Of a DNA stretch of 64,000 nt, positions 379 to 21,277 are shown piece after piece. The position numbers and the translations under genes are program-made. The DNA comes from a virus. The stretch lies in the IMG/VR virus record IMGVR_UViG_3300029258_005088. One strand, given 5' to 3'. The notes under the pieces were generated by a model. That model saw nothing but the letters and a program-made list of their open reading frames with translations. It was not told the DNA's origin and made no database searches. The number at the start of each line of letters is the position of its first letter. Position 1 is the first letter of the stretch.

Positions 379-2211
379 CTACAATCTCGATGGGTCCATT
401 AGCTTCGGAATCATCGATGTCTGCTCGTGCTTGCTGCTGGAGCCATGCCGAACTGCCTCCAACATCGAGCGCTTGACACCGAACCCGGCCAGACGCACTT
501 TCCAGTCCGGGTCCTCCGCAGGAATCCCCATCGCTCTTGTGACGTGAGGTTCGAATGCGGGCTCTCGTTTGTTTGCAACGATAGTCTCCACACCTTCATT
601 AGCAAGAAACTTAGCCACCTTGGGAGTGATTTTCGTTCCTATGCTATAGTGTAAAACTGGTTTCTCGAGATACTGGCCGACGCCTCTCTTCGGATTCATC
701 GAAGCCGATCCTTGACGGGGTTCGTAGTTTCTCTGGAGGGTTCCGTAAGGAACCACGTCCCCTATGACGTACCCCTGCAGGCCGTCGGGATCCGTTACCT
801 TTACCCTGTCGAAGAAAGCCCTGGAAAGGACCTCGACGTTCCGTCTGTGGGTCGGTACGGAGTTCTTCTTGAGTAACTCGTAGAACTTGTTCTGGAAATA
901 CATGCGTCCCTCGCCCAAGCCCTTGTACTTGGCTATCTCCGCTGGGTTTGGCGTGCCCGAGGTAAGTACGTCTCCGGCATCGACTTCCTGGCCGGGGCTT
1001 ACCTGTATCTTTCTGCCCTCCGGTACGTGAAGCTGCTGATCGTCGACGAACATGTAATGGCCGCCCTGCGGTGCTTTGACTATCTGGCGCACCTTCCCGG
1101 ACTTGGGAGCGAGTACGGCGGCGCCTCGGAACATCTTGGGCACCTGCACGAATTGATTGATCTCGTCGAATCCCTCGACGTTGTCGGAGTTGACGCCCAC
1201 GACTCCTCCGGTATGTTTGGCCGACAGAGCCATGCCCTGGGTCATCGGCTCCGATACCACGCGTCCCACCTCGATGCCTATCTGGGTGCCTATCGCCGGG
1301 AACGTTCCCTTCTCCCGCTTTCCAGAACATTTCTGGCAGACGCCTTCTTCCTGCTGGCACGTCAACAAGCTGCGTACAAGTGGCTTCTTCCCCCTCAGTT
1401 TCGGCAGGTGCCTCTTGTCGATAACCGTCCCCGCCGGTATGCCGTTCACGGTGCGGGAAAGGACGGCTCCGAGGATCTCGGGGTCGTCCCCGTCCACGAG
1501 TATTCCGACGTCATCGGCTCCACAGTCTTCTCCCATCACTCGGACGTGCTGGGACATGGCGGTTAGCTGCTTTCCCAGGAAGCCTGTCTTGGCGGTTGCG
1601 AACTGGACGTCGGCATATCCCTTTCTCGAGGCATAGGATCCGGCCCAGTATTCGGCGGGGGTGACGCCCTCTCCGTAACCATGCAGTCCGGGAATCGGAA
1701 CTGGACGACCCTTGTGGTCTGCGACCAGCATGTCGCCGAACATAAGCTGTATGACCTGCGTCGGGGATCCGCGAAAGCCCTGGGACAGTGCAAGCCCGTA
1801 GGCGTTGTCCCTGCCTTCGAGCTCTTTCATCAGCATGCTCTGGATGGTGGGCATCGCCTTCTTCATGGTGTCTACGATGCGCTTCTGCTTGGTATCCGCG
1901 GACATGCTGGGATTCTGTGCTATCTCCCGTATCCTGCCGCGCAGCTCCTTCCTATAGGCCTTGGTTCTCGGAGGCAGCTCTAGATCTTCCAGACGAAGGC
2001 TGGCGGGGCCCCCGTATTCGGTTCCGGCCACTCTGCTTACGTTGTTGAGGTTCTGCAGAACGTCGACGTACTTTTCGGGATGCTTGTCGGCGAGCTCCTG
2101 AAAGAACTGGGAACTGGACTTCATGTTGAATACTCGATCGCGATCCCGCATATCATCCGGGATCGCTCTCTCGACTAAAAGTCGTCCTATTGTCGTCGCG
2201 TTCTGTGGCAT
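379..2211 (-). CDS. rpoC: DNA-directed RNA polymerase beta' subunit, C-terminal half (bridge helix, Zn site, trigger loop)
   Basis: [12 protein letters not shown] ~ GARGSxxQxRQL; [22 protein letters not shown] ~ [37 protein letters not shown] ~ VRSxxxC..GVCxxCYG; [17 protein letters not shown] ~ GEPGTQLTMRTFHxGG. Confidence 0.93.
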   Translation of the reverse strand: [610 protein letters not shown]

Positions 2212-2212
2212 G

Positions 2213-2791
2213 TCAGTTCTTGCTGAATATTGACGCTAGGGAGCGGTAGGTCGAATCAAGAGGACTCATGAACGGGTTCAGGCTCACACGTCCCTCGAGC
2301 TCGTCCGCGGCTACGGCACTCCTCTCCGCCAGGTCCAGGAACACCTTCTTGTTACGCTCGTGCTTGGCGTGATTGGCGAGGTACCTGTAGCCCTGCTCTC
2401 TGGCTCTATAGGTCTTCGCCGTCTGGTACTCGGCGGCCACCGGCCGTATCGATCTCCTCGCCAACCTGTTTGCTACGTTGCCTCCTCGGGCCGGGATGTC
2501 TCCGTACATGCCCTTCGGAAGCAGCTTGTCGGTTGCCAGGATCTCCTGCTTGGAGGGATCTCCCGTGGGTTTGTGCGTCTCGAGGTAACGAAGATGACCC
2601 TCGGGAGTGGAGATGTCTCCGGGCTCTCCCTTCAAGTACTGCCCCGTCAACAGTCCGGCACCGGCTCCGAGGCCACCGCCTATGAGCATGTTCTTGGCGG
2701 TATGGTCTTTCTTGTCCAGGATGCGTCTGGCGACAAGAACTCCGATAGCCGCCCCGATGGGGGTCGTAACTAGACGAGGGTCGATATTCAT
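2213..2791 (-). CDS. Hypothetical protein with N-terminal glycine-rich hydrophobic segments
   Basis: 192-aa ORF with PIGAAIGVLVA and LIGGGLGAGAGLLTG segments; coupled to its neighbours. Confidence 0.7.
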   Translation of the reverse strand: MNIDPRLVTTPIGAAIGVLVARRILDKKDHTAKNMLIGGGLGAGAGLLTGQYLKGEPGDISTPEGHLRYLETHKPTGDPSKQEILATDKLLPKGMYGDIPARGGNVANRLARRSIRPVAAEYQTAKTYRAREQGYRYLANHAKHERNKKVFLDLAERSAVAADELEGRVSLNPFMSPLDSTYRSLASIFSKN

Positions 2792-2795
2792 GGCA

Positions 2796-3611
2796 CTACC
2801 TCAATTCGTTCATCTGGGAAAGGATGTGGGCCAGTTGATCCTTGTTGTCGGAAGCCATCTTCTCCGGCCCCATTTCCATGGGAACGGTTCCCATATCCAT
2901 CATCTCCGGGGGAGGCATTCCGCCACCTTCTCCGCCAGGTGCTTCGCCCATTGCCGCCATTACCTCCGGAGGAAGTGCGGGCATCCCGCCCTCGGCAGGC
3001 ATACCCATGTCCAGGGGAGGCATTCCAGCCTCTTCCATTGGAAGTTCTTCGGCACCCATTCCGGGAATTTCTCCGGCAGGCTTCAGGTTGAAATGGGACA
3101 TGAGCTGACCGACCATGGTCGAAAGCTCGTCCACCTGCTCGGCGAGTTCTCTGTTGGTGACGCGCCCGGAAGGCTTCTCGTCTTCATCTTCCTGGGCTCC
3201 TCCGATCTGCTGGAACAACGCCATGAGATCGTCTGAGTTCAGCATGATAGGCATGCCTCCTCCCATGGGATCCTCGGCACCTGCTTCGGGAGGCATCCCT
3301 CCAGCCATGGGATCGCCCTGAGGAGGAAGACCACCGACCATGGAAGGATCCATAGGAGGAGCGCCTCCGGCCATTGCGGGATCGGGCATTCCGGGAACGG
3401 GAGGCATTCCGCCGGCCATGGCCATCGGATCCATAGGAGCGCCTCCTCCCATCGGCATGGGAGGTGCAGGCGGAGCCTGTCCACCGGCCGCCATCATTGT
3501 GGGATCCATCATCGTGGGATCCATTCCGGGCTGTCCCGGCATCGGCCCCGGAGGGGCGTACGCCTGCTTGCCCATGAGAACTGTGTTCAGCAAATTCTTG
3601 TCTAAAGGCAT
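2796..3611 (-). CDS. Pro/Met/Gly-rich low-complexity protein
   Basis: 271-aa ORF with PPMDP/GGMPP repeats, AAGGAG RBS, and KQA and KMAS motifs. Confidence 0.75.
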   Translation of the reverse strand: MPLDKNLLNTVLMGKQAYAPPGPMPGQPGMDPTMMDPTMMAAGGQAPPAPPMPMGGGAPMDPMAMAGGMPPVPGMPDPAMAGGAPPMDPSMVGGLPPQGDPMAGGMPPEAGAEDPMGGGMPIMLNSDDLMALFQQIGGAQEDEDEKPSGRVTNRELAEQVDELSTMVGQLMSHFNLKPAGEIPGMGAEELPMEEAGMPPLDMGMPAEGGMPALPPEVMAAMGEAPGGEGGGMPPPEMMDMGTVPMEMGPEKMASDNKDQLAHILSQMNELR

Positions 3612-3654
3612 CGGTGTTACTCCTTATGTTGAAAACCGGCATGCATCTCAAGAG

Positions 3655-3686
3655 ATTATAATACGAGTTTCTGGTTAGTTTTACAA
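3655..3686 (-). promoter_or_regulatory. sigma70-like promoter candidate (TTGTAA-N17-TATTAT, overlapping TATAAT)
   Basis: AT-rich intergenic stretch upstream of the 271-aa gene; same TTGTAA -35 as the promoter at 48875-48903. Confidence 0.55.
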
Positions 3687-3692
3687 GTTAAT

Positions 3693-3926
3693 TCATGGTA
3701 AGCCCGCGTTCTTGTGCATGTACCCGTCCATGTAGCCTTGATCGAATACGGATGCTTTCTTCGACATCTTCTTGGACTTCTTCTTTTTCTTTTTGTCCTT
3801 GGGATTCATCTTGCGCTTGTTGGCGGTGGCATAGAACACGCGCTTGCCTTCTTCCTCGCCGTAACGCTCCTGCATCTCTTTCATGACCTTGTCGCCACTG
3901 CCTTTGTAATATTCCTTGACCGGCAT
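3693..3926 (-). CDS. Small basic phage protein
   Basis: 77-aa ORF (MKEMQERYGEEEGKRVFYATANK) with a poly-Lys tract and a C-terminal GYMDGYMHKNA motif. Confidence 0.7.
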   Translation of the reverse strand: MPVKEYYKGSGDKVMKEMQERYGEEEGKRVFYATANKRKMNPKDKKKKKKSKKMSKKASVFDQGYMDGYMHKNAGLP

Positions 3927-5173
3927 TACACAACTCCCTCTCTAAGTTTGTTATCTTTATTTGCAATGGTCATTCCACTGGATAATGCCTTAAGCACCAG
4001 TTTAAACGCATTTCTATCTGTCAGGTACAGATACCTCATAGCGTCCGTCTTGGAGTGCTTCTTTCTAAGAGAATCATACTTATCCAGTGCCTTTCCGACC
4101 GCTGCGTATTCTTTCTTGTCAAAAGGTGACGGGATGCCCATGGATTTTGCTCTCTCATTGGACCTATGGAAAAGCCTTGCTCTACTCTGAGTCTTCCCTG
4201 GTTTTTCAGATTCCTGTAACCAAATCTTAGACGGACCTCCTAGACGGCTGAAATTTTCCGATCTGGTCATATTAGCGAAGTCTCCAACGAACTTCTTCCA
4301 GTTATCGTCTCCTTCCACCTTGGAGGCTATGTACTGTTTGTATTTATCTACCATATTGCCCCATTCCTCATTCAAAGAAGAGTCTGGGTATAGTGACTGT
4401 TTCACAGGACTGTCATTAGTTATTAAGGCAGTGTTCTTCTTAGGATCGGCCCAATAATTCATTATGCTCCTAAGTTCTTGATACGGCTGTGCCTTGTTCT
4501 TCATATCACTCTCTAACCAAGCCCTCTCTTTATCCGACGGCTCGGTCTTCCATGTCCGTCCATGGAATCGGGCGGCCCTTCTATAGTCTTCGTCTCCTAC
4601 CGGAAGCCCTTTCGCAAGATCGAACGCTGGATACTTGACGTCTGGTCCATCTATATCCGGATTGTGTCCTACAGTATAGGCAGGTGCGCGGCTAACATAC
4701 TTTGGAGGCCTTGTGTCTATCCAATGTCCGGTTCTTCCCTTCCAATTCAGATGACCAAAGTCTTTCATTGCTTTCAGCAGTGCCGGATGACAACCTCCTC
4801 CAAGGTTGCAGGCGTCAATATTCAAAGCATAGTCACCCTTCGAGGGCACTGCCCTGCTGACGTGATTCATGATTGTTGAATTTACTAAGTCCTTGTTGTC
4901 TACAGAGTAGGACGACCTTCCGCCACCATGCCCGTGTATACCTACCGTGGGAAGGCCTTTTACCGACCTAAATTGAGATGGGTCATCCTTAAGTCTAGCG
5001 TCGAATGCGTTATCCGGTCTACTGGGAGAATATGCCGTCGTGTATTTCTCGTTAATAGGGGTTGGTCTCCTTATATTATACTTCCAGGCGCTTTTGGCTT
5101 TTGACTGGTTATCTCCGGCTCTCTTGTTCATATAGCCGTCCTGGTAGCCTGTTCTATAGGACTTATCGGTCAT
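3926..5173 (-). CDS. Hypothetical virion-type protein, possible clan CD (caspase/C80-like) cysteine peptidase
   Basis: 415 aa; N-terminal YRTGYQDGYMNKRA motif; VGIHGHG ... NIDACNLG resembles the His-Gly / Ala-Cys dyad of clan CD; visibly AT-richer than its neighbours. Confidence 0.55.
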   Translation of the reverse strand: MTDKSYRTGYQDGYMNKRAGDNQSKAKSAWKYNIRRPTPINEKYTTAYSPSRPDNAFDARLKDDPSQFRSVKGLPTVGIHGHGGGRSSYSVDNKDLVNSTIMNHVSRAVPSKGDYALNIDACNLGGGCHPALLKAMKDFGHLNWKGRTGHWIDTRPPKYVSRAPAYTVGHNPDIDGPDVKYPAFDLAKGLPVGDEDYRRAARFHGRTWKTEPSDKERAWLESDMKNKAQPYQELRSIMNYWADPKKNTALITNDSPVKQSLYPDSSLNEEWGNMVDKYKQYIASKVEGDDNWKKFVGDFANMTRSENFSRLGGPSKIWLQESEKPGKTQSRARLFHRSNERAKSMGIPSPFDKKEYAAVGKALDKYDSLRKKHSKTDAMRYLYLTDRNAFKLVLKALSSGMTIANKDNKLREGVV

Positions 5174-7222
5174 TCACAGCACTCCCTTGGTCGCTCTCTG
5201 CAGAGATATTCGTTTTCCGCTCTCGAAGAGGGGCTTGACCTTGTCCAGCCTGGTCCCTGTCTGGCGGGCATACTGGCTGTTTCTGAAAGATTGTCTGAGG
5301 CGCTCGGCGTTTTCCGCCGTGGGATTGACCATGAGAGCGTTCACGGCGTTATGGCCCTGTTGGAACTCCTTGAGATTGTCTCCCAGTGCATAGGCATGGA
5401 TCTTGAGCCAGTTCTGCATCATGGGGTTGAGTTTGCGCCAGTTCGGGTTCCAGGCATCGAGCTGTGTCGGGACGATTTTCTCGAGGTGGTGCTTGGTCGC
5501 CGCCCAATCCTCTTTGGTCTTGATGGTGCCTTTGCCGCTGCGGAGCTGTTTGAATCTGTTGTTCCCCCAGATCTTGGAAAGCTTGGAGGTGTTGGCCGGA
5601 CTCATGTAATGCCCGGTACCGATCGTGGGATAAGGCTCCTTGACGCCTTCGGCATTGGTGACGTGCTTGGCGGTAGGGCTGAAACCCTCGGCCTTGCTGA
5701 GCCACGGGTGTATGGCTTCATGGGCCTTGTCTCCGGCAGTCTTGGACGCCATTCTCGTAGAAGGATCTTTATTTACGAGCCCCAGGAAATCTTCTGCCAT
5801 ATCCCATAATAAGGCTTCCCATTCTTTACCCTTCCCTTCCCTCTCCATTATGCTGCGCAATGCCCGTAGATCAAAAGAATCATCAACCATAGGCTTCAGT
5901 TCACGTTTTATCTTTCTGTCCGGAGACGTCGCCCACTGGAGAAATGCAAAGGCTTTCTTCTTATCGCTGACGTCTACTCCCATGTGACTTGCGAGTGCCT
6001 TGAGATTACCTAATCTTGCTTCTCTTTCTATCTGCCGCATGGTGTAGGGAGCGGTGTGTCTCTTACTTCGAGCCTCTATGAACTTTCCTTTTTCATCCGT
6101 ATCCTGCACCATCTCGCTCATCTTATCGTGAGCCCACGTGTCCGCACTAAGGTGTCTCTTGTTTCTAGCCGCATTCTCCCTTACGACATCTTGTGCCGTT
6201 CCCTTTCCTTCGCCCTTAAGCGGGTACCATTTTCTGGCATGCTGAAGTACGTGTCGATACTCATGAGGAAGGAGTCGAGCCGTATGAGGCCTTATCCAAA
6301 TATCTGGGATGCGTTTACCAGGAGAGTATATGAACCCTCCTCCGCTTTTGTCGGGAGCGTCCTCATTTCTAAGAATCTTGTACGGAAAAGGCCTGTCCAA
6401 TGCCTTGTCATCCAGCCTCATGGCAAACCTATTCTTATACCCTTCTTTCTTCCTATACTCTCTGGCCTGCTCAAGGGACTTCTTGAAGGCTTCTGGACTA
6501 GGATACGTACTGCTTATTACTCTCCTAGGCGTATCCACTCCTGAGACAATAGGCTTTACGACAGGGACGGCTTTCTTAGAAATTTCTTTACTAGCATCTG
6601 CAGGTACCTCTCCCTTGTCTCCGGCAGTCTTCGCTATGATCTTGCCGTCCTTCAGCTCGTAAGGAGCCCATACCTGGCCTTCTACATAGTTGCCCGTCAG
6701 CCTGGGCAGCATGTCGAGCTTGCCTGCTTTCCTAAGCTCCACCAAGGTCATCAGCGTCTTGACCTCCTCACTGAGATTGCTCTTGTTGTGTCGCTCTCTA
6801 CGGAGATAATCGAAGGAGTCGCCGGGCGAAAACGTGGAAGCCTGCAGAAGCTCTTCGTCTATAGGATATACCTGGGTCGACTTGATATCGTGACCCCATG
6901 CCTTCTTCTGCTTGTCGGTACGGAAATACAAAGGATGCTTCAACTGTACCTTGTCGCCGAGTTTCTTGACGGCCTCCTCTCGTAGCGCCTTTTCAAGTCG
7001 AACACGGTCCTGCTTGTACCGATCGGTGTTCTTGTCTGGGGTATGCTCTTTATACCACTGCAGAACCTGCTCCTGCTCCTCTGGAGGCATATCGAGGAAA
7101 TTTCCGGGAAGCTTGCCTCCACGACCATAGTGATATCCCTCGACCTTGGCAGTCTTGTCCATATACCCGTCGAGATATCCCGAGGATCCAGACAACAGAA
7201 CTGCTGTGGTTACCGACATCAT
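5174..7222 (-). CDS. Polyvalent protein: unknown domain + HExxH metallopeptidase + lysozyme-like domain
   Basis: 682 aa; LLPHEYRHVLQH zincin motif; C-terminal KAEGFSPTA...PTIGTGHY resembles the GH24 lysozyme EG...TIGxGH signature; domains separated by KTAGD. Confidence 0.7.
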   Translation of the reverse strand: MMSVTTAVLLSGSSGYLDGYMDKTAKVEGYHYGRGGKLPGNFLDMPPEEQEQVLQWYKEHTPDKNTDRYKQDRVRLEKALREEAVKKLGDKVQLKHPLYFRTDKQKKAWGHDIKSTQVYPIDEELLQASTFSPGDSFDYLRRERHNKSNLSEEVKTLMTLVELRKAGKLDMLPRLTGNYVEGQVWAPYELKDGKIIAKTAGDKGEVPADASKEISKKAVPVVKPIVSGVDTPRRVISSTYPSPEAFKKSLEQAREYRKKEGYKNRFAMRLDDKALDRPFPYKILRNEDAPDKSGGGFIYSPGKRIPDIWIRPHTARLLPHEYRHVLQHARKWYPLKGEGKGTAQDVVRENAARNKRHLSADTWAHDKMSEMVQDTDEKGKFIEARSKRHTAPYTMRQIEREARLGNLKALASHMGVDVSDKKKAFAFLQWATSPDRKIKRELKPMVDDSFDLRALRSIMEREGKGKEWEALLWDMAEDFLGLVNKDPSTRMASKTAGDKAHEAIHPWLSKAEGFSPTAKHVTNAEGVKEPYPTIGTGHYMSPANTSKLSKIWGNNRFKQLRSGKGTIKTKEDWAATKHHLEKIVPTQLDAWNPNWRKLNPMMQNWLKIHAYALGDNLKEFQQGHNAVNALMVNPTAENAERLRQSFRNSQYARQTGTRLDKVKPLFESGKRISLQRATKGVL
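5725..5743. repeat. 19-bp direct repeat copy 1 (ccttgtctccggcagtctt; encodes KTAGDK on the minus strand)
   Basis: Exact match to 6613-6631. Confidence 0.9.
6613..6631. repeat. 19-bp direct repeat copy 2
   Basis: Exact match to 5725-5743; the pair brackets the metallopeptidase domain. Confidence 0.9.
7148..7222. repeat. 75-bp repeat copy 1 (encodes MMSVTTAVLLSGSSGYLDGYMDKTA)
   Basis: 70/75 identical to 8206-8280 by manual alignment. Confidence 0.9.
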
Positions 7223-9887: not shown

Positions 9888-12800
9888 TCGTATTCCTCTC
9901 TGACCTATGCGTGTAACCGTCCATATACCCGTGCGAGGCGTATTTCTGTCCACTAGGAAGTGATCGGTTGTCCACTACCAAAGGAAGCTCCTCTGAAAGC
10001 ATGTCAATGAACTTAATCTTCTTATCCGGAGTCAGTGTGTCGTAGTATTCAAGGAACTGCCTGGCACCGTGCTTATAAGGACGGTCTCCTTCGAAGAACT
10101 CCGTCAGTGCCTTTTTCGCCTCTGCCTTATTCCTGGCTCTACCTCCCTTGTTGTACCACCACGCTTTGATATCTCCTAGCCGTACCTCTCTCTCCTTATC
10201 GTCGATGAGGAAATATGCTACGTCGGACTGGCGGTCACTCCATTTGCTATCTACTATGAGTTTTCCATCGGCGTCTTTAACCCGCTCTTTCGTCTTGGGG
10301 TCCGTTTTAAATACGGTCCTTGTCGGGGTCATGTCAGGTTCGAACTCTTTCATATAGGCCATACTTCTCTTGAGTATATCCGGATGCCTTGCGTGTCCTA
10401 GGTTTTTGTTCAAACCAACCGTCTGATAAAAGCGAGGGTATTGTTTGTCCCCTACCTCGGGTATCTGGAAATTATGCCTGCTCTCGTGGATTATGGAATG
10501 ACCTAGGTCGGACACGTCTTTCTTTCCTCTAGCTCCTACGGTCATAGTAGGATGAACGCTCTCTACAGGACCGCTTTTCAAACCGCCCCCCTCCGGATAC
10601 ACGAAATCACTTTTGGTTCCTGCATTATGCTGGGCTCCGTACCACATCTTAGGGTCGAACTTCATCGGAATATACCTTTGAGGAAATCTAGTGGGCATGT
10701 CGATGCGCTCGACCCGCATGTTCGGAACCATGCCCGTGGCCTTCTGGTAGGCCAAGGCATCCTGAACGGACTTGTCTAGATTGCTGGGCTCTCCTGGCTT
10801 GTACACGCCTTGGTGATACCATCCACCGTACTGGTGGTGAAGAGGGAAGTACGTATCTACCTTTCCCTTGTTTTTACCCTTGTCCTCGCCCTTCCAGCCC
10901 CATTCGGCCATCTCCCAGGCTTTTTTATTTCTCTCGGCCCTTGCATTGAACTCCTTCTGCTTGGCTGCCTGAGCCGCCATCATCTGCTTCTTGATGGCCT
11001 CTATCTGCTTCTGATACGCACCTATCCTGTCTTGGTATCCCTTACCCATGTATTTCATCTGGTACTTATCCGTGGCAGGTGCCTTGGTGTCTACGTCAAC
11101 GGTCTTGACGGGAGGAGTTAATACAGGGTTGTTCACGGCCTTCTTGGCAGGTGTCTTGGAAGCTTGTTCGGCAATCGAAGGAACAGCGGGAGCCGCTCCG
11201 GAACTAGCCTCCTTCTGCTGTTTCTTCTTCTGACGTTCTTGCCATTCCTCGTACTTCTTCGGATTGTCCTTGAAGTACTGCAGCATATCGCCGCATGCAA
11301 CTTTCTGGACCTTGCCCGGAGGTCTTATCATCAGAGGGTACGGTCTATTGCGTTCCTCGTCCATAGGCATGATCCCGGACTTCTCGTCACCGGGAAGGAA
11401 CCCGTGCTTCCTGTAAAGGGATATCAGAGCTGCCAGACGGGCTTCGTATTCCTCGTCGTCGAAGTTCTCGTGCTCCTGCAGGTTCTCGTCCAGCTCGAAC
11501 GGCCCGGCTCTGAGAGCCAGGGTCTTCTTCTTGTTGTCTTTGACGATCTGTTTCAAAAGCTTGTCGGCAAAGCCCTTTCCTCGAAAATGAGGATCCGTGT
11601 GGATGTCTCCGACCACGCTGTAGTCGCCGTTGTCCTTCACGGTTGCATAGGATGCATCCACTCCCTTGTCGGTTACGAAATACTCCTTGACCGGTCCGTC
11701 CCCGTGAGTGGATACCTTGGCCTTCTTCTGCATGTCGCCACAGGCCACTTTCTCGTTGTCTATGAGATCCCAGGCGTCGTCCTTGGACATACCTTTCTCC
11801 TGAAGATCCCACGCTCTACGTATCCTGTCCTTTGCAGCGGAAGTCTTCACAGAGATGTCTACGTCCGGACTCGCCGCTGTAGCCGTATGCTCTCCCTCGT
11901 CTCTCTCCTTGAACCGAAACTCTTCGGATTCCGACAACTTCCTAAGTAGACGTACCAGACGAGCCCGCTTCTTGGGATCGTCCTCGAAGATGTGATAGTC
12001 CCAGTCCCTTCCTTCCGGATGAGGTCTTCCGTAAAAATCAGCTCTTCCCCTAGAGCCCGTCAGTTCTGCCTTACGGATCAGACGCTTCTTGAGGTCTGCC
12101 TTCTTCTGCATATTACCCGTATTCTTGTAGACCTTCTTCGCTATGTCATCCCAGATCTCTCTGCAGTGCTGGTCCTTGATGCACGTGATCTGCAGCTCCA
12201 TGCCCAGATGCTCTCTGCACCACTTCTTGATGGCGCGTCGGGCCACGCCGTCGTTGTCTCCGGCCACTCGAGCGGTGAATATCTTGATCTTCTTGCCCCG
12301 GCCGATATAACGCTTCACGCGGTCGACCATCTTCTGGATGGGCGCTCCGATGACGTCCGGACCCTTCCAGCCGTCGTATTTGGCCAGAGTACCGTCGAGA
12401 TCCACGCCGATCCACTCCTCGTCGGAAGCCTCCTTGTCCATCCCCAGAGGATCTCCGTAGTCCATCGTAAGCTCGGTATCTTCCGGAATGTCCCGCAATG
12501 CCTTGAAATAGCAACCATCGGGAGCGGGGTCGAATACGACGTTTGGATCCGATGCGTGGTTGGTGTAGCGTGCTCCGATCGTGCGATGCAGCTCCCTGTC
12601 CAGTGCGAGTGCGAACGACTCTCCCCGTTTTACGGGCTTGGTGACGAACGCGCCTTTTCCCTCTATGTCGGAATCCCTTATCTCTATGGGATCCTCGTCT
12701 GGCTGGGGAATGAGGTCGTCTGCATACTCCGAGTTTTGCCTATGCTCTTCCGCACTCGTTCCGCTCTCCTGCAGGTAGGTCTCGAAATCTGAACCCGTCT

Positions 12801-13026
12801 TCTGGAACAGAGGCGTTGCGACCTCTCTAGGAAGATGGAAGCGGAAACCGCTGGGACGATGGGTGACTCCGACGACGTCCCTCTCCCTGGAATCGATCTC
12901 GAAATCGCCGGGGTTCTTTCGTATGAGATCCGTTGCCAGCCTATGCTTCTCGGTATAGTTCCGTCTGTCCGACTCCTTCTTCAAAAGGAGAAGCGACTGT
13001 ATAAGCTGTCCTCGTCTTTGGTTCAT
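9880..13026 (-). CDS. Polyvalent protein: SET methyltransferase + HAD phosphatase + nucleotidyltransferase-like + GNAT acetyltransferase + HExxH metallopeptidase
   Basis: 1048 aa. SET: EGKGAF..RYTNHASDPN..ELTMDYG. HAD: GVDLDGTL..FTAR..IWDD. NTase: LTGSR..DWDY. GNAT: DPHFRGKGFADKLL..LYRKHGF. Peptidase: IIHESRHNFQ. Confidence 0.85.
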   Translation of the reverse strand: MNQRRGQLIQSLLLLKKESDRRNYTEKHRLATDLIRKNPGDFEIDSRERDVVGVTHRPSGFRFHLPREVATPLFQKTGSDFETYLQESGTSAEEHRQNSEYADDLIPQPDEDPIEIRDSDIEGKGAFVTKPVKRGESFALALDRELHRTIGARYTNHASDPNVVFDPAPDGCYFKALRDIPEDTELTMDYGDPLGMDKEASDEEWIGVDLDGTLAKYDGWKGPDVIGAPIQKMVDRVKRYIGRGKKIKIFTARVAGDNDGVARRAIKKWCREHLGMELQITCIKDQHCREIWDDIAKKVYKNTGNMQKKADLKKRLIRKAELTGSRGRADFYGRPHPEGRDWDYHIFEDDPKKRARLVRLLRKLSESEEFRFKERDEGEHTATAASPDVDISVKTSAAKDRIRRAWDLQEKGMSKDDAWDLIDNEKVACGDMQKKAKVSTHGDGPVKEYFVTDKGVDASYATVKDNGDYSVVGDIHTDPHFRGKGFADKLLKQIVKDNKKKTLALRAGPFELDENLQEHENFDDEEYEARLAALISLYRKHGFLPGDEKSGIMPMDEERNRPYPLMIRPPGKVQKVACGDMLQYFKDNPKKYEEWQERQKKKQQKEASSGAAPAVPSIAEQASKTPAKKAVNNPVLTPPVKTVDVDTKAPATDKYQMKYMGKGYQDRIGAYQKQIEAIKKQMMAAQAAKQKEFNARAERNKKAWEMAEWGWKGEDKGKNKGKVDTYFPLHHQYGGWYHQGVYKPGEPSNLDKSVQDALAYQKATGMVPNMRVERIDMPTRFPQRYIPMKFDPKMWYGAQHNAGTKSDFVYPEGGGLKSGPVESVHPTMTVGARGKKDVSDLGHSIIHESRHNFQIPEVGDKQYPRFYQTVGLNKNLGHARHPDILKRSMAYMKEFEPDMTPTRTVFKTDPKTKERVKDADGKLIVDSKWSDRQSDVAYFLIDDKEREVRLGDIKAWWYNKGGRARNKAEAKKALTEFFEGDRPYKHGARQFLEYYDTLTPDKKIKFIDMLSEELPLVVDNRSLPSGQKYASHGYMDGYTHRSERNTND

Positions 13027-13730
13027 TTCTTCGCACGTTCCGCCATCTTGGCAAGAGCCTCTTTCTTCTTTTTCTCCTCGTCCGCCTCTCCGGAGGCGAG
13101 TGCGAGTTCCTTTTTCTGCAGCTCGAGTTCCTTCTTCTGCAGAGCTTCCATGGCCTTGAGCCTGTTCTGGATCTTCTTCCGTTCGATGACGGTCATTATC
13201 GTGAGAACGAGGGGAAGGCCTATGGCAACTCCTCCCGCTGCGTAGGCATATGGCTTGATCTGGTTCCAGGTGTCCTGTCCCGCCGATGTTATGCCTCTGT
13301 TGATCTGTCCCTGGATATCCAAGTCGGAGTTTGTCTTATCGACTATCTCCTGAACTTTATCCCGGGCGCGGTTGAGACTGGCGTCCACTAGCTCTCGAGA
13401 ACGCCTATCAGCCAAGTCATAGCTCTTGTTTGTCTGCTCTCTCACTCTTTCCGCAGCGGCGTCGATTATGTCTTCATACTCCCTTTTATACAGTCTTCCT
13501 GTCTCTTCAGCCGTGCGGGCAAGCTCGTCTCGCCACTCTCGTCCCTGGTCTCGCCTGGTACGGCCCACTAGACCTTCCACGCCTTTGGAGACTGCCCAGC
13601 CAGGACCTTCCGTGACAACGGTCTTCGCCACGTTCCATGGCGAGAACTTCTCCTTGAGACTTTCATACAAGCGATCACCGAACCCGGATTCCTTGTGCAT
13701 GTAGCCAGCTATGTATGCTTCGTTGTTCAT
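13023..13730 (-). CDS. Membrane-anchored coiled-coil protein
   Basis: 235 aa; MNNEAYIAGYMHKES start; TM segment AYAAGGVAIGLPLVLTIMTVI. Confidence 0.7.
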   Translation of the reverse strand: MNNEAYIAGYMHKESGFGDRLYESLKEKFSPWNVAKTVVTEGPGWAVSKGVEGLVGRTRRDQGREWRDELARTAEETGRLYKREYEDIIDAAAERVREQTNKSYDLADRRSRELVDASLNRARDKVQEIVDKTNSDLDIQGQINRGITSAGQDTWNQIKPYAYAAGGVAIGLPLVLTIMTVIERKKIQNRLKAMEALQKKELELQKKELALASGEADEEKKKKEALAKMAERAKK

Positions 13731-13739
13731 ATTGATCCT

Positions 13740-14795
13740 CTACTGTGATTGGTACTCTTTGTCTATCTCCTCGTACCACTTCTCCTTGCTGCGCTCGTCC
13801 TGCCTGCCCTGGGCACGCTGGCTCATGTAGGTCAGTATGGCGGCAGGGATCGAGAGAGAAGCCGCGCCTATGCCGGCACCCACCACCGGCGCGTTCTTGG
13901 AATCGGGCATCGCGAGATCGCCTATCGCACCACCCGCTATCGATCCGGGTATTGCCGCCAGTACGGCGACGAGCGCGGCCCTTGCGGTTGGCGACATCTT
14001 GGATATGACCTCCGGCTCTCCGAGAACCTCCAGCGGCATGGAAGGATCGTCGGTAAGCGCCTTGTCGGCTCTCTTCTTGACGTCCTCCACGCGGGGCCCG
14101 ACGAACTTGTTGCCAATGGTGCCGACCACGGTCTGCGGACCTTTCTTCTTGGCATATTTGACGAGATAACCGTCCATATATCCTACGTTCATGATAGATC
14201 CTTCCTTTATGTTGAACAGCTCCGCGGGCAGTCTCATGCGCTTTCCGGGATCGACGCCTGGATGGTCCATCCGTCTTCCGTTGATTCCCGAACGGGAGGC
14301 CAGGCTCTGCGTGAAAGTGTTGGAGTTCTTGCCCCAGCCCAGAAGATTCTTTATTATTCCGGGATACCGAACGGGATCGTTCTTCGTGTTCCCTCTATAG
14401 GCTCTGCCTCTGGCCATGACCTCGTCGATCTTGTCGTCGAGAATATCCTCCTGAACCTCGGTACGGAACACGGTGGCATCCTCTCCCGGATCGTCGTTTA
14501 CGTACCGACGCACGCGCTCGAGATCCTTTGGATGGTTCCTGTGGTACTTCATCACGGCCCTGCCGAATATGTTCTTGATGATGCCGGCATCCGCGTAACC
14601 ACCGACGACCATTCCCTTGACCCCGTTTCCAAGATCCTGGAGCTTGCCCTTGAATCGCTCGACGTCACGAGGTACGAGAACCATGAACTGATGCCTGAAG
14701 TTACCCGGAGCCGGAACCTTTCGGGAACCGATGTATATGCCCGGAGCAAGCCTCTTTCCTCTGAACTCGTTTCCTGTTTGTCTTACGCCTGGCAT
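13740..14795 (-). CDS. Hypothetical protein with C-terminal glycine-zipper TM segments
   Basis: 351 aa; internal GYMDGYLVKYA motif precedes the domain containing AALVAVLAAIPGSIAGGAIG and VVGAGIGAASLSIPAAIL. Confidence 0.7.
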   Translation of the reverse strand: MPGVRQTGNEFRGKRLAPGIYIGSRKVPAPGNFRHQFMVLVPRDVERFKGKLQDLGNGVKGMVVGGYADAGIIKNIFGRAVMKYHRNHPKDLERVRRYVNDDPGEDATVFRTEVQEDILDDKIDEVMARGRAYRGNTKNDPVRYPGIIKNLLGWGKNSNTFTQSLASRSGINGRRMDHPGVDPGKRMRLPAELFNIKEGSIMNVGYMDGYLVKYAKKKGPQTVVGTIGNKFVGPRVEDVKKRADKALTDDPSMPLEVLGEPEVISKMSPTARAALVAVLAAIPGSIAGGAIGDLAMPDSKNAPVVGAGIGAASLSIPAAILTYMSQRAQGRQDERSKEKWYEEIDKEYQSQ

Positions 14796-14798
14796 GCT

Positions 14799-17700
14799 CT
14801 AATCCTCGACTACTCTTATGGGGTCGTCTATCGTTATCTCGCCTCTGCTGAACGCCATCATGGCCTCCTGCATCGACTTGAATATCCTGGTCTGCCCTTT
14901 CTTCGGCGGCTTCGTCGCGAAGTACAGGCCCTGAAGATACTCGTTCGACGGGGTATAAGCGGGCTTGCCGAATCTGGACGAGATCAGATTCTTCTCTGGC
15001 ATCATCAGCTCATTCGCCTGGTCCACTGCCTTCTGTGATACCGGTACAGTAAAACTAGCAGTATCGCCATCGAAATCCATAGCGAACGGACCAACTATGG
15101 TAGGACTTACCTGAATGGTCTTGCCCTTTGTGAGGACCGGCGTGAACGCCATGTTCGAGTACTTGTGCAGCGTAGGCGCTCTGTTGACCAATACAGGACG
15201 CTTCTTGATGACGGATTGCAAGGCTTTGTACGCCGGAGGGCTCTTGGCTTCCACGGCCTTTGCAGCCTGTGTCGCCGGATATCCCTTGCCTACCATCTCC
15301 CTTACCACGAAATCGCCGTATAGATTCCATGCCAGCTTCTCGGGCATGCCTATCTGGTTAAGCTTCAAGGAGGGGTTTGGAGCTACGACGCCCAGACCGG
15401 ACACGTCTATGTTGGTTCCTATGACGCGGCGCTGAACGAAGCCGAACTTGGGAGATCCCTTGCCGAAGATCTGCTTGAGCATACCGCCTACGTTCTTCTG
15501 CTGGAGCTGTTCCTGGTCCGGATCGGTCATGCCCACCAGAGTGTTGTAGGACTTCCACACGTTTCCCCATGCCTCGGACCGGATGTCCTTGGGCATGCCG
15601 TCGGTATCCTTGTAGTCCTGTATGTTCTCCAGAAGGGTCTTGTAGAGATAGTTCGGATCGGCAACCATCGTCATGTCGCTCTGTCTGGATATCGGGCGGA
15701 ACCTCGGAGGCAGTACGGGGACGCGGGTCATCAGGAAGTCTTCCGGCTTGACGTCGTGTTTCTCCATGGCGTCGATATACCGGAACAACTTCACGGCGTC
15801 GTCTCTCTTGGACTTGGCTCCGTGCTTGATCTGCTCCAGAGTGCGCTGCTTCAACGAAGGCATGTTCACCCTGCTCAGCATGTAGGACAACGCCTCGGAT
15901 CCACTCCTGCCCTCCACCTCGGTGTTTCCGGCGACCATGTCGTCGAATTCCTTCTGCTTCATGCCGAGTATGCGTCGGAGGGGTTCGGACATGATGGGGT
16001 TCGGCATCGGAGCCGGGAGCTTGATGTAAGACCACTTGTCTCCGTTGCCCATGCTCCCCGTGGCCTCTGGATCGAACAGGCCGCCGGGTATGGGTCGGAG
16101 GTTCTTGGCGTCGTAGGTCGACGGGTTCTTGATCTCACGGGCACCGGTCAGTGCCTCCGCCTGATTGTTGGTCATGGCGAATACGCTGTCCTTGTCCTTG
16201 TCCTCGTGCAGGTTGATGCCGGCCGCTCGTATAAGGCTCTTGAACTTCTGATAGACCAATGGAGTATCGGGCTGCGTCGGAGTCTCGCCCAGCTTGAGCT
16301 GTCTCCAGAAATTGCTGTTCTTCTGTCCCTTGATGATCTTGAGATCCTTGAGAACCTGGTCGGCGCCATGGGCCTGCAGAGCCTGTATCTCCATATCTCC
16401 GAGATGCTTGGCTCCTTCCTTTCCGCCGCGTGCCGGTTGATCCTCCGCGGTATACCTGGAAGTGCCTCTGGACTTGCCCTTTCCTTCCGCGGTATGCTGG
16501 AGCTTGTAGACGTAGGTCATGCCGGTCAGAATGCCCGGTATGGTCTTGCCCGTCTTCGGATCGTACAGATCTTCGTTGGCCTTGACGTTGTTCTTGTACG
16601 CCTCTCGGGCGGCGAACTTCTTCATGTCCTCGTCCAGGAACCCCGGCAGCACGTACGGCTTTCCGGTCTTTTCCGCTACCTTGCCCAGAACCACTTCCGA
16701 TTTCTGCGCTGGGTTGGTACGGCTGTGGATGCCGAGTGGCGAGAATATGACGTCGATCGGCCGTCCCTTGGAATCCCTAGGCATGTCTTCGTCCCTGATT
16801 ACCTCGGCGACCACGCCTTTGTTGCCGAAGCGCCCGGAAAGCTTGTCGCCCTCTTCCATGGGGACGTTGGCCCTGACGTTGATGTTGTAGCCTTTCTTGC
16901 TGGGCTCGGCATCGGTGACCACGGCCGGGAACTCGTGCTTCCATACGACGCTGTCGTCCGTACGGGTCTTGCGTCCCATCGACTGGGGCGTGGGCTCTCG
17001 CTCTTTCACGGCCAATACCATGGGATCGCCGTAGTTCACCACGGTACCGGTCTTCACGACCCCGTCGTCTCCTATGGTGCCGAGCTGGGACTTGCTGAAT
17101 CTGGATGGGTACAGGGCCTGGAACTTGGCTTTGTCCGTGAACACGTCTTTGTCCTTCTCGAACTTTGTCGTGTACATGTGCTCTGACGTCAGCTTTTCCT
17201 TTGCGGCGGACTGGGATATGACGACGGCGTCCTCGAACACCTTTCCGTCGTAGTTCAGATAGGCCACGCGAAGGTTCGTTCCCAGTGCGGATACGCCATC
17301 CGGATCCGTATAGTTCGAAGTCGCAAGTACTGCGCCTTTTCCCACCTTCTGGCCAGCCTTTACCTTGGGAGTGTTCCTGATGAAGGTCTTGCGGGCATAC
17401 GGGTGGTTGTCGTAAAGGTCTATGGTCTCTTCCGTTCCGTCGTCGTAGGACATCTTGAGGTGATCCTTGTAGACCGCCTTGACGACGCCCGGTTTGGAAG
17501 CTTTCACCGCGCCCATGTAAACGCCCATGCGCTCCTCCTCGGAACCTCCCTTGGGATTGGAAGTCCTTACGAGAGGGGCCTGACGACCAACCAGAGGAAG
17601 TGCCTGTCTGGCGAACTTGTTCCCCATCAGCAGGCGCATGCCTTTGACGCCCGACTTCAACGGAACCAGGTTGGCGGTATCCGAGAACATCTCGTCGCCG

Positions 17701-19205
17701 TCGGGAAGCAGGTAGTCCAGGTCTTTCTTGTGGACGTACTTCATGTCGCGTCCCTTGGACAGAGTCGGTACGTACGAGTCTCCGGGCTCCGACGATCCGG
17801 GCATGCCTATGTTGGCTTCCGTGGCGTCTCTCACGCCCACCCATTCCTTCTTGCCGGTCTTCGCATTGATGAGCTGGGTGTAAAGCTGCCTGTCGGGACC
17901 GCGTCTGACGTTTCTGGCCAGGCGCATGTCGAGACCTATGCGGAGCGACTCCGGGGCCACCACGGGATCGATGTAGCCGAGGTACGACGGTTGTACGTTT
18001 CTGGACTCCTTCGGCGCGGAGTCTATGCTGGGAAGGGCACCCTCTCCGAGGCGGCTGACTCGAACGTTCTGGTCGTAGATGTCGGAGGGATTGATCTCTT
18101 CGATTGCCTGAGCCACTCCCGTGGCAGTGAACAGATGGCTGACGTGCGCGTCCAGAAGGGAAGGCGGTATCTTCTTCATGTCCTGACCGCGGCCGGTAAG
18201 CTTCCACAGAACCTTGCGCAGGGCGCCGCCCTGATCGTTCTTGATCTTCTCCGCCAGGAAATCGGAGACGTCGTATATGTCCTGGTACGCAAGGCTGTCG
18301 CGGCTATCTGTATCGGCTTTGCCTTTGCCAACGTTCAGTATCTTGGTCGTAGCCGCCATGATGGCTTCCGGAGTGGCGTTCATGTACTCGGTTCCCAGCG
18401 TCCGCCGAGTTACCCTGGGACTGAGCTCGGTCCTCGAGAACTCGCCTATGACGTTGGCCTGGAATTCCGGATCGTAATCGGTCTCGGAAGCCTGCTTGTC
18501 CATGTTCTTGAACCCGACTGCCTTGATGAGTTCCTCTCTGGCCTCGTCCCTCTGGGGACGGAACTGCTTCAGGAAATTGACTGCGTAGGGGCTGTTCTGC
18601 AGAGCTTTGTTCTTCTCCGCGAGCTCCTTGCCCCACGTCTTCTCTATGCGTTCGTGAGGAATGCCCATGGCTCTGAGCACGGGGTACATCGGAACCTTGC
18701 GTCCCTTGTAGCGCATGAAGAAATGCCCGCTGCCCGGTTCCATGTATACTCTGAAGCTCGATCCGGTACGGGGTTTGGCATTGAACTGGGCCTCGATGTT
18801 TCCGTCGTCGGTAACCCTGGTGTATACACCGGGCACGAGACGAAACTGCTTCGCTATGGTGTATTCGACGCCCTTGCGGATGTAGGTCCCTCTGTCCGTA
18901 AGGTGAGGGACGTTCATCAGGCGCTTCTGGTTCGTCCTTCCTACTACGGTGCCCGTGGCGTTGTCCACGAGCTCGTAATTACCGACGAGCTTGTCCGATA
19001 GGGATTGTCCGGCCAGTATGGCCTTCTTCTGATCCTTGAGGGAGAAGCTGTCCTTGCCGGAGAACTTTGGATTTACCACGCGCAGAGTGAACTGCTCGTT
19101 AACTGCCGGGGGCGACTCCTGAACCGCTTTCAGGACTTTGTCCCGGAGGTCCTGGCGAACCCTGGGATAGTCCGTATAATCGAGAAGTTGTTGTTCGTTC
19201 ATCAC
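14799..19205 (-). CDS. rpoB: DNA-directed RNA polymerase beta subunit fused to the N-terminal (catalytic) half of beta'
   Basis: 1468 aa. beta motifs: PHLTDRGTYIRKGVEY, RLLMGNKFARQALPL, FEDAVVIS, GDKLSGRFGNKGVV, YVYKLQH, LGDMEIQAL. beta' motifs: GGLFD, PVLPPRFRP, NRAPTLHK, FAMDFDGDT (metal-binding DFDGD). Confidence 0.95.
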   Translation of the reverse strand: MMNEQQLLDYTDYPRVRQDLRDKVLKAVQESPPAVNEQFTLRVVNPKFSGKDSFSLKDQKKAILAGQSLSDKLVGNYELVDNATGTVVGRTNQKRLMNVPHLTDRGTYIRKGVEYTIAKQFRLVPGVYTRVTDDGNIEAQFNAKPRTGSSFRVYMEPGSGHFFMRYKGRKVPMYPVLRAMGIPHERIEKTWGKELAEKNKALQNSPYAVNFLKQFRPQRDEAREELIKAVGFKNMDKQASETDYDPEFQANVIGEFSRTELSPRVTRRTLGTEYMNATPEAIMAATTKILNVGKGKADTDSRDSLAYQDIYDVSDFLAEKIKNDQGGALRKVLWKLTGRGQDMKKIPPSLLDAHVSHLFTATGVAQAIEEINPSDIYDQNVRVSRLGEGALPSIDSAPKESRNVQPSYLGYIDPVVAPESLRIGLDMRLARNVRRGPDRQLYTQLINAKTGKKEWVGVRDATEANIGMPGSSEPGDSYVPTLSKGRDMKYVHKKDLDYLLPDGDEMFSDTANLVPLKSGVKGMRLLMGNKFARQALPLVGRQAPLVRTSNPKGGSEEERMGVYMGAVKASKPGVVKAVYKDHLKMSYDDGTEETIDLYDNHPYARKTFIRNTPKVKAGQKVGKGAVLATSNYTDPDGVSALGTNLRVAYLNYDGKVFEDAVVISQSAAKEKLTSEHMYTTKFEKDKDVFTDKAKFQALYPSRFSKSQLGTIGDDGVVKTGTVVNYGDPMVLAVKEREPTPQSMGRKTRTDDSVVWKHEFPAVVTDAEPSKKGYNINVRANVPMEEGDKLSGRFGNKGVVAEVIRDEDMPRDSKGRPIDVIFSPLGIHSRTNPAQKSEVVLGKVAEKTGKPYVLPGFLDEDMKKFAAREAYKNNVKANEDLYDPKTGKTIPGILTGMTYVYKLQHTAEGKGKSRGTSRYTAEDQPARGGKEGAKHLGDMEIQALQAHGADQVLKDLKIIKGQKNSNFWRQLKLGETPTQPDTPLVYQKFKSLIRAAGINLHEDKDKDSVFAMTNNQAEALTGAREIKNPSTYDAKNLRPIPGGLFDPEATGSMGNGDKWSYIKLPAPMPNPIMSEPLRRILGMKQKEFDDMVAGNTEVEGRSGSEALSYMLSRVNMPSLKQRTLEQIKHGAKSKRDDAVKLFRYIDAMEKHDVKPEDFLMTRVPVLPPRFRPISRQSDMTMVADPNYLYKTLLENIQDYKDTDGMPKDIRSEAWGNVWKSYNTLVGMTDPDQEQLQQKNVGGMLKQIFGKGSPKFGFVQRRVIGTNIDVSGLGVVAPNPSLKLNQIGMPEKLAWNLYGDFVVREMVGKGYPATQAAKAVEAKSPPAYKALQSVIKKRPVLVNRAPTLHKYSNMAFTPVLTKGKTIQVSPTIVGPFAMDFDGDTASFTVPVSQKAVDQANELMMPEKNLISSRFGKPAYTPSNEYLQGLYFATKPPKKGQTRIFKSMQEAMMAFSRGEITIDDPIRVVED

Positions 19206-20318: not shown

Positions 20319-21081
20319 CTGCGAAGGGTGCCCCGAGTTCGGGGAGGAGGTCTCCGAAGGCTGAGATCGCCTCGTCGAAGGTCCCGTATCTGGATGGTAT
20401 GTCATCGTTCGACTCCACTTGGTTGGAATCCTTGTTCTCGTTCAAATCGTCTGCAGCCACTTTTGCGAGGTCCGCGGGCTGCTGTATCGGAGGATCGTCC
20501 TCGCGTAGCTTCTTCGGGGGAACTGGCTTGGGGAGCCTTCCTCCGCTGGCCTTCGCCTGCTCCCGCACGTTCCTGAGAGCCGTCGAAGGAGGTCCGTAAT
20601 AAGGCTCCATCCAACGAATGAGGATGCGCCAGCTCTTGATGTCGTCGTCGTAGACCTTTTCCTCGTAGGACACGATGGCCTGCTGTCTGCATATCTTCTC
20701 GCATAGCGCCCGGTACTGCTTCATGTCCTCTTCTTCGGCCAGGTTCCATTGAGCGACACAGGCATTGTTCCTGAGCTGAGGCCGTAGATGTTCGGGATCG
20801 TCCTCTTTGTAATCGAGCACGGGACCTATGTACGGGAGCTGTACCCCGTCGTCGGTCTCGTAGAAATGCTCTCCGGCGGCATCCGTTACCAGCGTGCCGT
20901 ATCTCTGAAGAGGATTTCTTCTGCTGTGAGGGTTAGATATGAAGCGTTCGTGCACTTGGGTTTTCCTTTTCGGCCAAAGCCTGCTGTCCTTCGATCTCTT
21001 CCTGTTTCCTGCGGCGCTCGAGTTCCGCGATGAACTCTTCGAGCTCGGCCGCCTCGAGGGCCTTCTGGACGGCTTCTTCAT
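20293..21081 (-). CDS. Hypothetical protein (true start probably GTG at 20955)
   Basis: Protein-like composition from VHERFISNP onward; the upstream part overlaps the 114-aa gene. Confidence 0.65.
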   Translation of the reverse strand: MKKPSRRPSRRPSSKSSSRNSSAAGNRKRSKDSRLWPKRKTQVHERFISNPHSRRNPLQRYGTLVTDAAGEHFYETDDGVQLPYIGPVLDYKEDDPEHLRPQLRNNACVAQWNLAEEEDMKQYRALCEKICRQQAIVSYEEKVYDDDIKSWRILIRWMEPYYGPPSTALRNVREQAKASGGRLPKPVPPKKLREDDPPIQQPADLAKVAADDLNENKDSNQVESNDDIPSRYGTFDEAISAFGDLLPELGAPFADDEEDGGS

Positions 21082-21277
21082 CCATCGGAGACGGACTCGT
21101 GATCTTCGAGTGAGTCAGGCCGGCACCCGCTCCGAGAAGGATGGGAGCGACCAGAAAGTAAGGAGCCAGGCTCTCTGCGACTTCCTTGCCCGTCCTTACC
21201 GTTTCGGCACCCCCTCTGAGGAGAGATGGGTATGCTTCCTTGTGCATGTATCCGTCTAGATATGCCTGTTTGTTCAT
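20933..21277 (-). CDS. Small membrane protein
   Basis: 114 aa; MNKQAYLDGYMHKEA start; TM APYFLVAPILLGAGAGL. Confidence 0.75.
   Translation of the reverse strand: MNKQAYLDGYMHKEAYPSLLRGGAETVRTGKEVAESLAPYFLVAPILLGAGAGLTHSKITSPSPMDEEAVQKALEAAELEEFIAELERRRKQEEIEGQQALAEKENPSARTLHI

Follow-up and report, generated by a model that had tools for sequence, protein, structure and literature searches.

The 64,000-nt window analysed here, taken from IMG/VR virus record IMGVR_UViG_3300029258_005088, carries two genes for a bacterial-type multisubunit RNA polymerase that lie 12,588 nt apart, and raises the question of how such an enzyme is built, from where it obtains its promoter specificity and whether it travels in the virion. 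The window forms part of a 201,176-bp metagenome contig (ERZ27256770 k141_1722295; window position 1 corresponds approximately to contig position 64,011), almost all of its genes are carried by the minus strand and the phage itself is uncultured, with a genome of about 200 kb. The original prediction, made from the sequence of the window, had described a beta::beta-prime(N) fusion with a distant beta-prime(C) gene and had proposed an injected, probably alpha-less virion polymerase with an unusual split point, for which small neighbouring proteins might replace sigma. We find that the enzyme is of a known kind, a phage multisubunit RNA polymerase, and that it belongs within this kind to a fused, sigma-bearing lineage for which we found no published description: full-text searches of the literature did not return an account of a beta::beta-prime phage fusion, and passages of three reviews on phage multisubunit polymerases do not mention the lineage.

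The larger of the two genes encodes a fusion protein of 1468 aa (coordinates of all features are collected in Table 1). Pfam recognised Rpb2 domains 2, 3, 6 and 7 at residues 125-959 of this open reading frame (ORF), together with Rpb1 domains 1 and 2 and the first third of domain 3 at residues 1131-1464; PF00562 (Rpb2 domain 6, the beta catalytic barrel region) matched at 4.3e-46 over residues 606-927 and PF00623 matched the beta-prime part at 7.1e-21. The conserved lysine segment GDKLSGRFGNKGV occupies residues 786-798, with K788, K796 and G797 invariant across the family, whilst D1377, D1379, G1380 and D1381 of the catalytic Mg-binding motif are invariant in 29 family members. The second ORF, of 610 aa, aligned over residues 6-477 with bacterial beta-prime 579-1083 at 6.7e-44 when searched against solved structures, and contains the bridge helix (residues 186-216), four Zn cysteines (230, 285, 292 and 295) and the trigger loop (312-357). 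In the same type of search, the best matches of the fusion were bacterial beta (Thermus, 4.6e-61) and bacterial beta-prime (8i23_D residues 166-562, 8.7e-52): bacterial polymerases were by far the best matches of both chains, and phiKZ/AR9 chains were absent from the best 60 matches of either. Of the elements of the multisubunit double-psi beta-barrel type in its bacterial beta/beta-prime form, the barrel regions, the DFDGD triad, the bridge helix, the trigger loop and the C-terminal Zn site are present. The Pfam, motif and structure matches bear out the claim that the 1468-aa ORF holds complete beta and beta-prime to just past DFDGD, and the alignment and motif positions bear out that the bridge helix, Zn site and trigger loop come from the 610-aa ORF some 12.6 kb away; the architecture of the two-chain polymerase is firm.

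Public gene calls differ slightly from these two ORFs. An identical fusion protein of 1467 aa is recorded on the 201,176-bp contig, its call using the ATG, whilst the public call of beta-prime(C) begins at Met30 and gives 581 aa; the 29 residues dropped in this way include the conserved TTIGRLL element. The 610-aa start is preferable, since residues 6-29 align with bacterial beta-prime. Within the beta part, the equivalent of rifampicin cluster I (residues 358-387) differs from proteobacterial beta at two aligned positions, which we take to be E. coli D516 (E here) and H526 (Q here), and these exchanges suggest that the enzyme would be insensitive to rifampicin.

In order to place the fusion junction and the break between the chains, the phage chains were aligned with 23 bacterial rpoB and rpoC pairs. 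The C-terminus of beta joins beta-prime from about its tenth residue, and none of the phage forms retains the N-terminal Zn ribbon of beta-prime (CxC...CxxC). A conserved strand and the TTxGR element flank the variable loop in which the two chains are broken apart; relatives with a full fusion, and bacteria, are continuous here, and the break lies approximately 70 residues upstream of the cyanobacterial gamma/beta-prime split. To call this split point unusual was an overstatement, because the cyanobacterial and phiKZ-type breaks occupy the same region after the catalytic barrel: it is the beta::beta-prime fusion that is the unusual feature. Cyanobacteria and plastids (rpoC1/rpoC2) thus share the division of beta-prime between the DFDGD barrel and the bridge helix, although the fusion here ends at about gamma residue 552 of 625, with residues 1-69 of beta-prime(C) covering the end of gamma, and cyanobacterial beta is not fused to gamma as it is in the first phage chain. 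Natural rpoB-rpoC fusions, in which the beta C-terminus is joined directly to the beta-prime N-terminus, occur in Helicobacter, Wolbachia and their relatives; these are full-length enzymes of cells, in which alpha2, omega and the beta-prime Zn ribbon are preserved. The phage forms share this end-to-start join but lack the Zn ribbon, and the split clade is in addition broken inside beta-prime.

The two-gene layout is a family trait and not a one-off. It is found in the cultured Salmonella phage Arash (OQ632216; gp206, 1525 aa, and gp216) and in Vibrio phages D69, D148 and D181, where the fusion comprises approximately 1,525-1,545 aa and the separate beta-prime(C) approximately 606-628 aa; identity of the window proteins to these cultured relatives is 26-30%. 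Matches to the fusion number at least 595 amongst metagenome proteins, many being 1,445-1,490 aa long, with contigs reaching 214 kb; in IMG/VR, relatives are encoded on at least 406 contigs. Amongst 85 loci that were fetched, 40 are split with beta-prime(C) 0.9-7.4 kb downstream, 24, from more distant relatives, are full fusions with one beta::beta-prime ORF of 2,007-2,301 aa, a further 12 show the fusion without a beta-prime(C) gene inside the fetched flank, two have beta and beta-prime(N) as separate genes and seven could not be classified. The gap in the window is the widest measured; in Arash it amounts to 4.7 kb and in D69 to 0.6 kb. The window is an ordinary member of a large phage polymerase lineage, to which it adds the widest gap and no new kind of system. 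Two further observations concern relatives. In many relatives the polymerase genes are interrupted by inteins, homing endonucleases or other inserts (L064, L069, L003, L013, L038, L020 and D181/D148), and L064 and L069, with beta and beta-prime(N) as separate ORFs, represent a three-gene form. Three polymerase-bearing contigs of 162-204 kb (L105, L106 and L107) have been binned into metagenome-assembled genomes labelled Thermoguttaceae, Leptolyngbyaceae and Bacteroidales, and these bins may be a hint at hosts or may be a result of mis-binning.

Trees were calculated from concatenated beta and beta-prime (18 phage and 23 bacterial rows, 41 in all; approximately 1,950 columns) using FastTree and IQ-TREE with LG+G4. 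All phage forms fall on one side of a long branch that separates them from the 23 bacteria with a support of 100. Within them, the split forms including Arash, D69 and the window make up one group (support of 95 with FastTree and 89 with IQ-TREE), and the full fusions branch beside this clade, with their own monophyly weakly supported. The phylogeny, which the original prediction had named as its check, places both chains in an all-phage clade and not amongst bacterial rpoBC, and the genomic neighbours are phage head genes downstream of a portal gene: the enzyme is a phage polymerase and not a host rpoBC.

We then turn to the subunits that accompany this core. Bacteria assemble their core enzyme using alpha and omega. 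Amongst 20 large relatives, of which 18 reach a completeness of 90% or more, there is one polymerase set per genome, and neither alpha (PF01000, PF01193) nor omega (PF01192) gave a match in any of the 20, whilst all 14 control genomes were positive; nor did the window and the remaining parts of the contig that were read yield either subunit. Pfam likewise agrees with the statement that no alpha, omega or sigma is recognisable among the ORFs of the window, and neither BLASTP nor profile searches found a sigma in the window or at 37.5-128 kb of the contig; a sigma-family gene does exist outside the window. This gene, for a protein of 235 aa, is located approximately 33 kb beyond the window start and about 47.5 kb downstream from the fusion, with a Baseplate_J-like gene two genes downstream of it. 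This protein matched the profile of a phage sigma family at 2.7e-99 and Arash gp10 at 2.6e-16 (BLASTP); the family itself, to which gp10 belongs, was exposed by weak Sigma70_r4 matches on ORFs of 240-300 aa. Pfam Sigma70_r3 matched the 235-aa protein above its cut-off (3.9e-9, 36.9 bits), region 4 was weak and Pfam region 2 was not significant for the protein itself, whilst the family profile aligned with residues 67-242 of sigma F, from region 2.2 to region 4 (2.2e-10), and with regions 2.2-3 of SigA. The predicted structure (predicted local distance difference test score, pLDDT, of 81) gave sigma factors as all of its top Foldseek matches at a probability of 1.0, with TM-scores that are low (approximately 0.3), as is expected for a flexible multi-domain model. 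Thus the protein is a sigma-70-family factor with regions 2, 3 and 4 in order and a sigma fold. The family profile finds exactly one copy in each of the 20 large relatives, and also finds the factor in Arash, D69 and three full-fusion records, whilst Pfam Sigma70_r2 alone finds sigma in only two of the 20 and is misleading; the co-occurrence of sigma with this polymerase is firm. The idea that small neighbouring proteins replace sigma found no support and is unneeded, because a true sigma-family factor travels with the polymerase.

Comparison with described phage enzymes supports a separate placement of this lineage. Passages of reviews describe the phage multisubunit polymerases of the phiKZ/AR9 type as split enzymes without sigma, alpha or omega: beta and beta-prime are separate chains, beta itself comes in 2-3 pieces, each genome has two sets, one of which is packaged and injected, the sequences are very far from the bacterial ones, and phiKZ gp68 and AR9 gp226 serve as specificity factors in place of a sigma-70 homologue. 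What the window shares with them, as far as these passages go, is the possession of phage beta/beta-prime homologues, the lack of alpha and omega and the split of beta-prime just after the catalytic barrel. In contrast, beta and beta-prime(N) here form one chain, each genome has a single set together with a sigma-70-family gene and the best structure matches are bacterial, so that the separate chains, two sets and missing sigma-70 of the phiKZ/AR9 type were not found. The features of the Arash-like lineage were all found: a two-gene layout on the same strand, a grouping in the tree apart from bacteria and a gp10-family sigma in the genome. As in Arash and D69, both genes lie downstream of the portal gene in the head module and there is one set per genome. 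The window phage differs from these two in its wider gap and in that Arash and D69 possess a second sigma with a clear region 2, which was not seen in the part of the contig that was read (approximately 27.8-128 kb). The Arash paper labels the genes plainly as beta and beta-prime, and its passages on them make no mention of a fusion (PMC10585845).

Is this polymerase carried in the virion? The polymerase genes form part of the late head module, flanked by the portal gene and others of the head, in an order (portal, fusion, beta-prime(C), further head genes) that is conserved between the window, Arash and D69. The claim that they are embedded among proteins with putative packaging motifs is correct: seven neighbouring proteins share a near-identical leader, YxDGYMxKxA, located at residues 6-40, and the motif is present on five of the 10 genes between the two polymerase genes. 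In addition, according to the mass spectrometry passages of the Arash paper, gp206 was the most-detected protein of the virion with 3516 spectra, exceeding those of the major capsid protein, with 1210 spectra for gp216 and 467 for the sigma gp10 (PMC10585845). Of the proposed injected, alpha-less virion polymerase, the alpha-less part is supported, none having been detected in the 20 relatives, whilst packaging in this phage is plausible by homology to Arash gp206 and gp216.

Further indirect evidence comes from a flexible loop in the beta lobe, GFKNMDKQAS, which was the sole internal stretch with a pLDDT below 50 in a model of residues 1-340 (overall pLDDT of 88.6). Its xKxA/S motif recurs in close relatives, and its position is where bacteria carry lineage-specific insertions in beta. 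In several relatives (proteins P0038, P0066, P0069, P0064, P0077, P0047 and P0071) effector domains are inserted in beta at this one spot, equivalent to residues 200-256 here, and each is bounded by xKxA(A/G/S): they comprise InPase, SET, DUF5661, HAD-like, 2'-5' RNA ligase and 2H-SAK/Acb1-like phosphoesterase (anti-CBASS-type) domains. Counter-defence enzymes thus appear, from their domain matches, to be built into the polymerase of these relatives. In the window phage, the loop may represent an exposed site for cleavage by a head-maturation protease, although the tripeptide alone would occur by chance. A candidate enzyme for such cleavage at xKxA sites is a 483-aa head-module protein, encoded approximately 6 kb beyond the window start, which shows a weak match to a head-maturation protease family (3e-4) and has the Arash structural protein gp222 as a homologue. 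This weak match apart, PHROGs did not provide functions for the neighbouring genes.

Taken together, we consider it fairly probable that the whole of the following chain of events applies. The first chain would provide all of beta together with the beta-prime clamp and catalytic barrel, the second the bridge helix, trigger loop and jaw, and this core would work without alpha or omega, with promoter specificity coming from the phage 235-aa sigma-70-family factor. As the genes sit in the late head module, we infer that polymerase and sigma would be made late, packaged into the capsid and injected, and would then transcribe the early genes in the next host. Assembly of the chains and use of the sigma are likewise conclusions drawn from the genomes. 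A broader version, tentative at best, is that the lineage as a whole represents a self-contained minimal bacterial-type machine (a fused core in one or two genes with its own sigma and without alpha or omega) that is packaged and injected, in which the xKxA loop of the beta lobe would act both as a cut site for the head protease and, in relatives, as a docking slot for counter-defence enzymes such as the Acb1-like 2H phosphoesterase, InPase and SET domains. As for the origin of the layout, the likeliest history is an end-to-start fusion of rpoB and rpoC, followed later by one fission inside beta-prime: the fused gene would have broken in the variable loop just before the TTxGR element, with head cargo genes then accumulating in the gap, to 12.6 kb here.

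Several points weigh against this account, and they concern its history, its packaging and its sigma alike. The order of fusion and fission rests on parsimony, because the trees are unrooted and the bacterial sample is small, biased and chosen by similarity, and the absence of alpha and omega is the negative result of a profile search. With regard to packaging, the virion data come from the Arash homologues, which are only 30% (fusion) and 26% (beta-prime(C)) identical to the proteins of the window; the N-terminal leader of the neighbouring proteins is absent from both polymerase chains and from sigma; and passages of the Arash paper list ribonucleotide reductases, RNA ligases and helicases in the virion preparation too, its authors noting that abundant non-structural proteins were possibly carried over (PMC10585845). 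The last two of these points would fit a polymerase that is not packaged, but is made during infection for the middle and late genes whilst the host polymerase reads the early ones, the detection in Arash virions then being due to carry-over; with one polymerase set per genome, the activity of the enzyme has to extend past the early phase anyway. However, the late head module, which houses the genes in the window, in Arash and in D69, is a poor position for an enzyme that is needed before late expression, carry-over has to account for a protein with more spectra than the major capsid protein, and domains of the injected-effector type lie inside the beta loop of relatives. We therefore regard an unpackaged polymerase as unlikely, whilst giving it some weight, and retain late synthesis, packaging and injection as the preferred course.

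A different objection concerns the sigma factor, whose binding to the phage core and not to the host core is drawn from co-occurrence only: the sigma-like protein could redirect the host polymerase, with the phage core using an unrecognised specificity factor, possibly a conserved neighbour. Passages of reviews do note that sigma homologues in jumbo phages are typical of those that lack a polymerase of their own. The flap-tip helix, furthermore, is shortened in this phage and in its nearest relative, and the beta-prime Zn ribbon is absent. The flap-tip helix is where sigma region 4 docks in bacteria. A neighbour that might take the part of sigma is the 271-aa protein, whose gene is always found between the two polymerase genes: according to its family profile, the scores of which may be inflated by composition, a gene of this type (approximately 230-270 aa) comes directly after the fusion gene at 46 loci and is missing from all full-fusion loci. 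This gene accompanies the fission, and no other between the polymerase genes is conserved throughout the split clade, but its product is mostly low-complexity sequence. The clamp helices of beta-prime, which are the main docking site of sigma in bacteria, are moreover retained, with the alignment to bacterial beta-prime 166-562 being contiguous and without large gaps. The one-to-one occurrence of sigma and polymerase (20 of 20 large relatives, both cultured lineages and three full-fusion records) also speaks against a sigma for the host enzyme, large contigs of identical length (165,647, 185,416, 199,448 and 93,705 bp) figuring in the polymerase and sigma match lists alike, and in the passages on Arash virions gp10 is found together with the core (PMC10585845). 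A sigma that serves the host polymerase consequently appears quite improbable to us, and the 235-aa factor is best read as the one that directs the phage core. Finally, although inteins and homing endonucleases do interrupt polymerase genes in many relatives, an artefact (a fragment of host rpoBC, a misassembly, a pseudogene broken by insertion or halves rejoined by a split intein) is so improbable that we reject it, as this contig was recovered more than once, with 7-8 contigs on record, neither ORF is disrupted, at least 40 loci of 30-60% identity share the break, the neighbours are phage head genes, and no room is left for intein halves since the chain ends align to contiguous bacterial sequence gap-free and without surplus.

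Some of the genes surrounding the polymerase fit with a head module that carries cargo. Two products of the inter-polymerase block, the 558-aa and the 1048-aa protein, look like polyvalent injected proteins by their domain content, and in the 351-aa protein the leader motif occurs inside the chain, at residue 206, which gives the appearance of two joined cargo proteins. For a gene of 80-90 aa that precedes beta-prime(C) in relatives (approximately 40% identity), the window offers no equivalent. An island of glycosyltransferase, methyltransferase and class-V aminotransferase genes, encoding GT2, GT9, GT29-like and GT32-like enzymes, a mannosyltransferase and FkbM, adjoins the portal gene on its upstream side.

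Table 1. Position of the polymerase genes, their elements and further features (window coordinates unless another contig part is named)
Feature	Position	Strand	Remarks
beta::beta-prime(N) fusion gene	14799..19205	(-)	1468 aa from GTG, or 1467 aa from ATG at 19202
beta part of fusion	16176-19205	(-)	approximately residues 1-1010
beta-prime N-part of fusion	14802-16175	(-)	approximately residues 1011-1468
Fusion junction	16173..16196	(-)	beta end ...INLHEDK directly into beta-prime start DKDSVFAM...
Flexible beta-lobe loop GFKNMDKQAS	18486..18515	(-)	residues 231-240; carries xKxA/S motif
Rifampicin cluster I equivalent	18045-18134	(-)	
Catalytic Mg-binding motif MDFDGD	15063..15080	(-)	residues 1376-1381; read directly
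beta-prime(C) gene	379..2211	(-)	610 aa; Pfam Rpb1_5
Stretch dropped by public beta-prime(C) call	2124-2211	(-)	29 residues
Inter-polymerase block	2213..14795	(-)	12.6 kb, 10 co-oriented genes; products (ORFs and Pfam) of 351, 235, 1048 (SET+GNAT), 558 (InPase+DUF5661+rubrerythrin), 366, 682, 415, 92, 271 and 192 aa
Leader-bearing genes	3926-5173, 5174-7222, 7219-8319, 13023-13730, 20933-21277, 22080-22808, 22805-25174	(-)	
271-aa protein	2796-3611	(-)	Pro/Ala/Gly/Met-rich; largely MDPxM/GGAPP-like repeats; xKxA motif near start
558-aa protein	8277-9953	(-)	InPase, DUF5661 and rubrerythrin/ferritin-like domain
1048-aa protein	9880-13026	(-)	SET and GNAT domains
351-aa protein	13740-14795		
Portal protein	25184..27061	(-)	625 aa; homologous to Arash gp204 (1e-51) and D69 0259 (2e-59)
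Glycosyltransferase island	~28400-45500	(-)	
Sigma-70-family gene	L103:19122-19829 (contig ~30.6-31.3 kb)		235 aa
483-aa head-module protein	L101:8529-9980		

In comparison with the reviewed enzymes of the phiKZ/AR9 type, the polymerase of this lineage is fused and not fragmented, is much closer to those of bacteria and is always accompanied by a true sigma-family gene. A probable fusion followed by fission is recorded within one lineage, and a loop of the polymerase serves as an insertion site for effector domains. As cultured members exist (Arash and D69), biochemistry and cryo-electron microscopy are feasible now. Lacking a detectable alpha and omega, the enzyme offers a natural test of the minimal needs of a bacterial-type polymerase, in which the covalent link between beta and beta-prime may stand in for the alpha platform.

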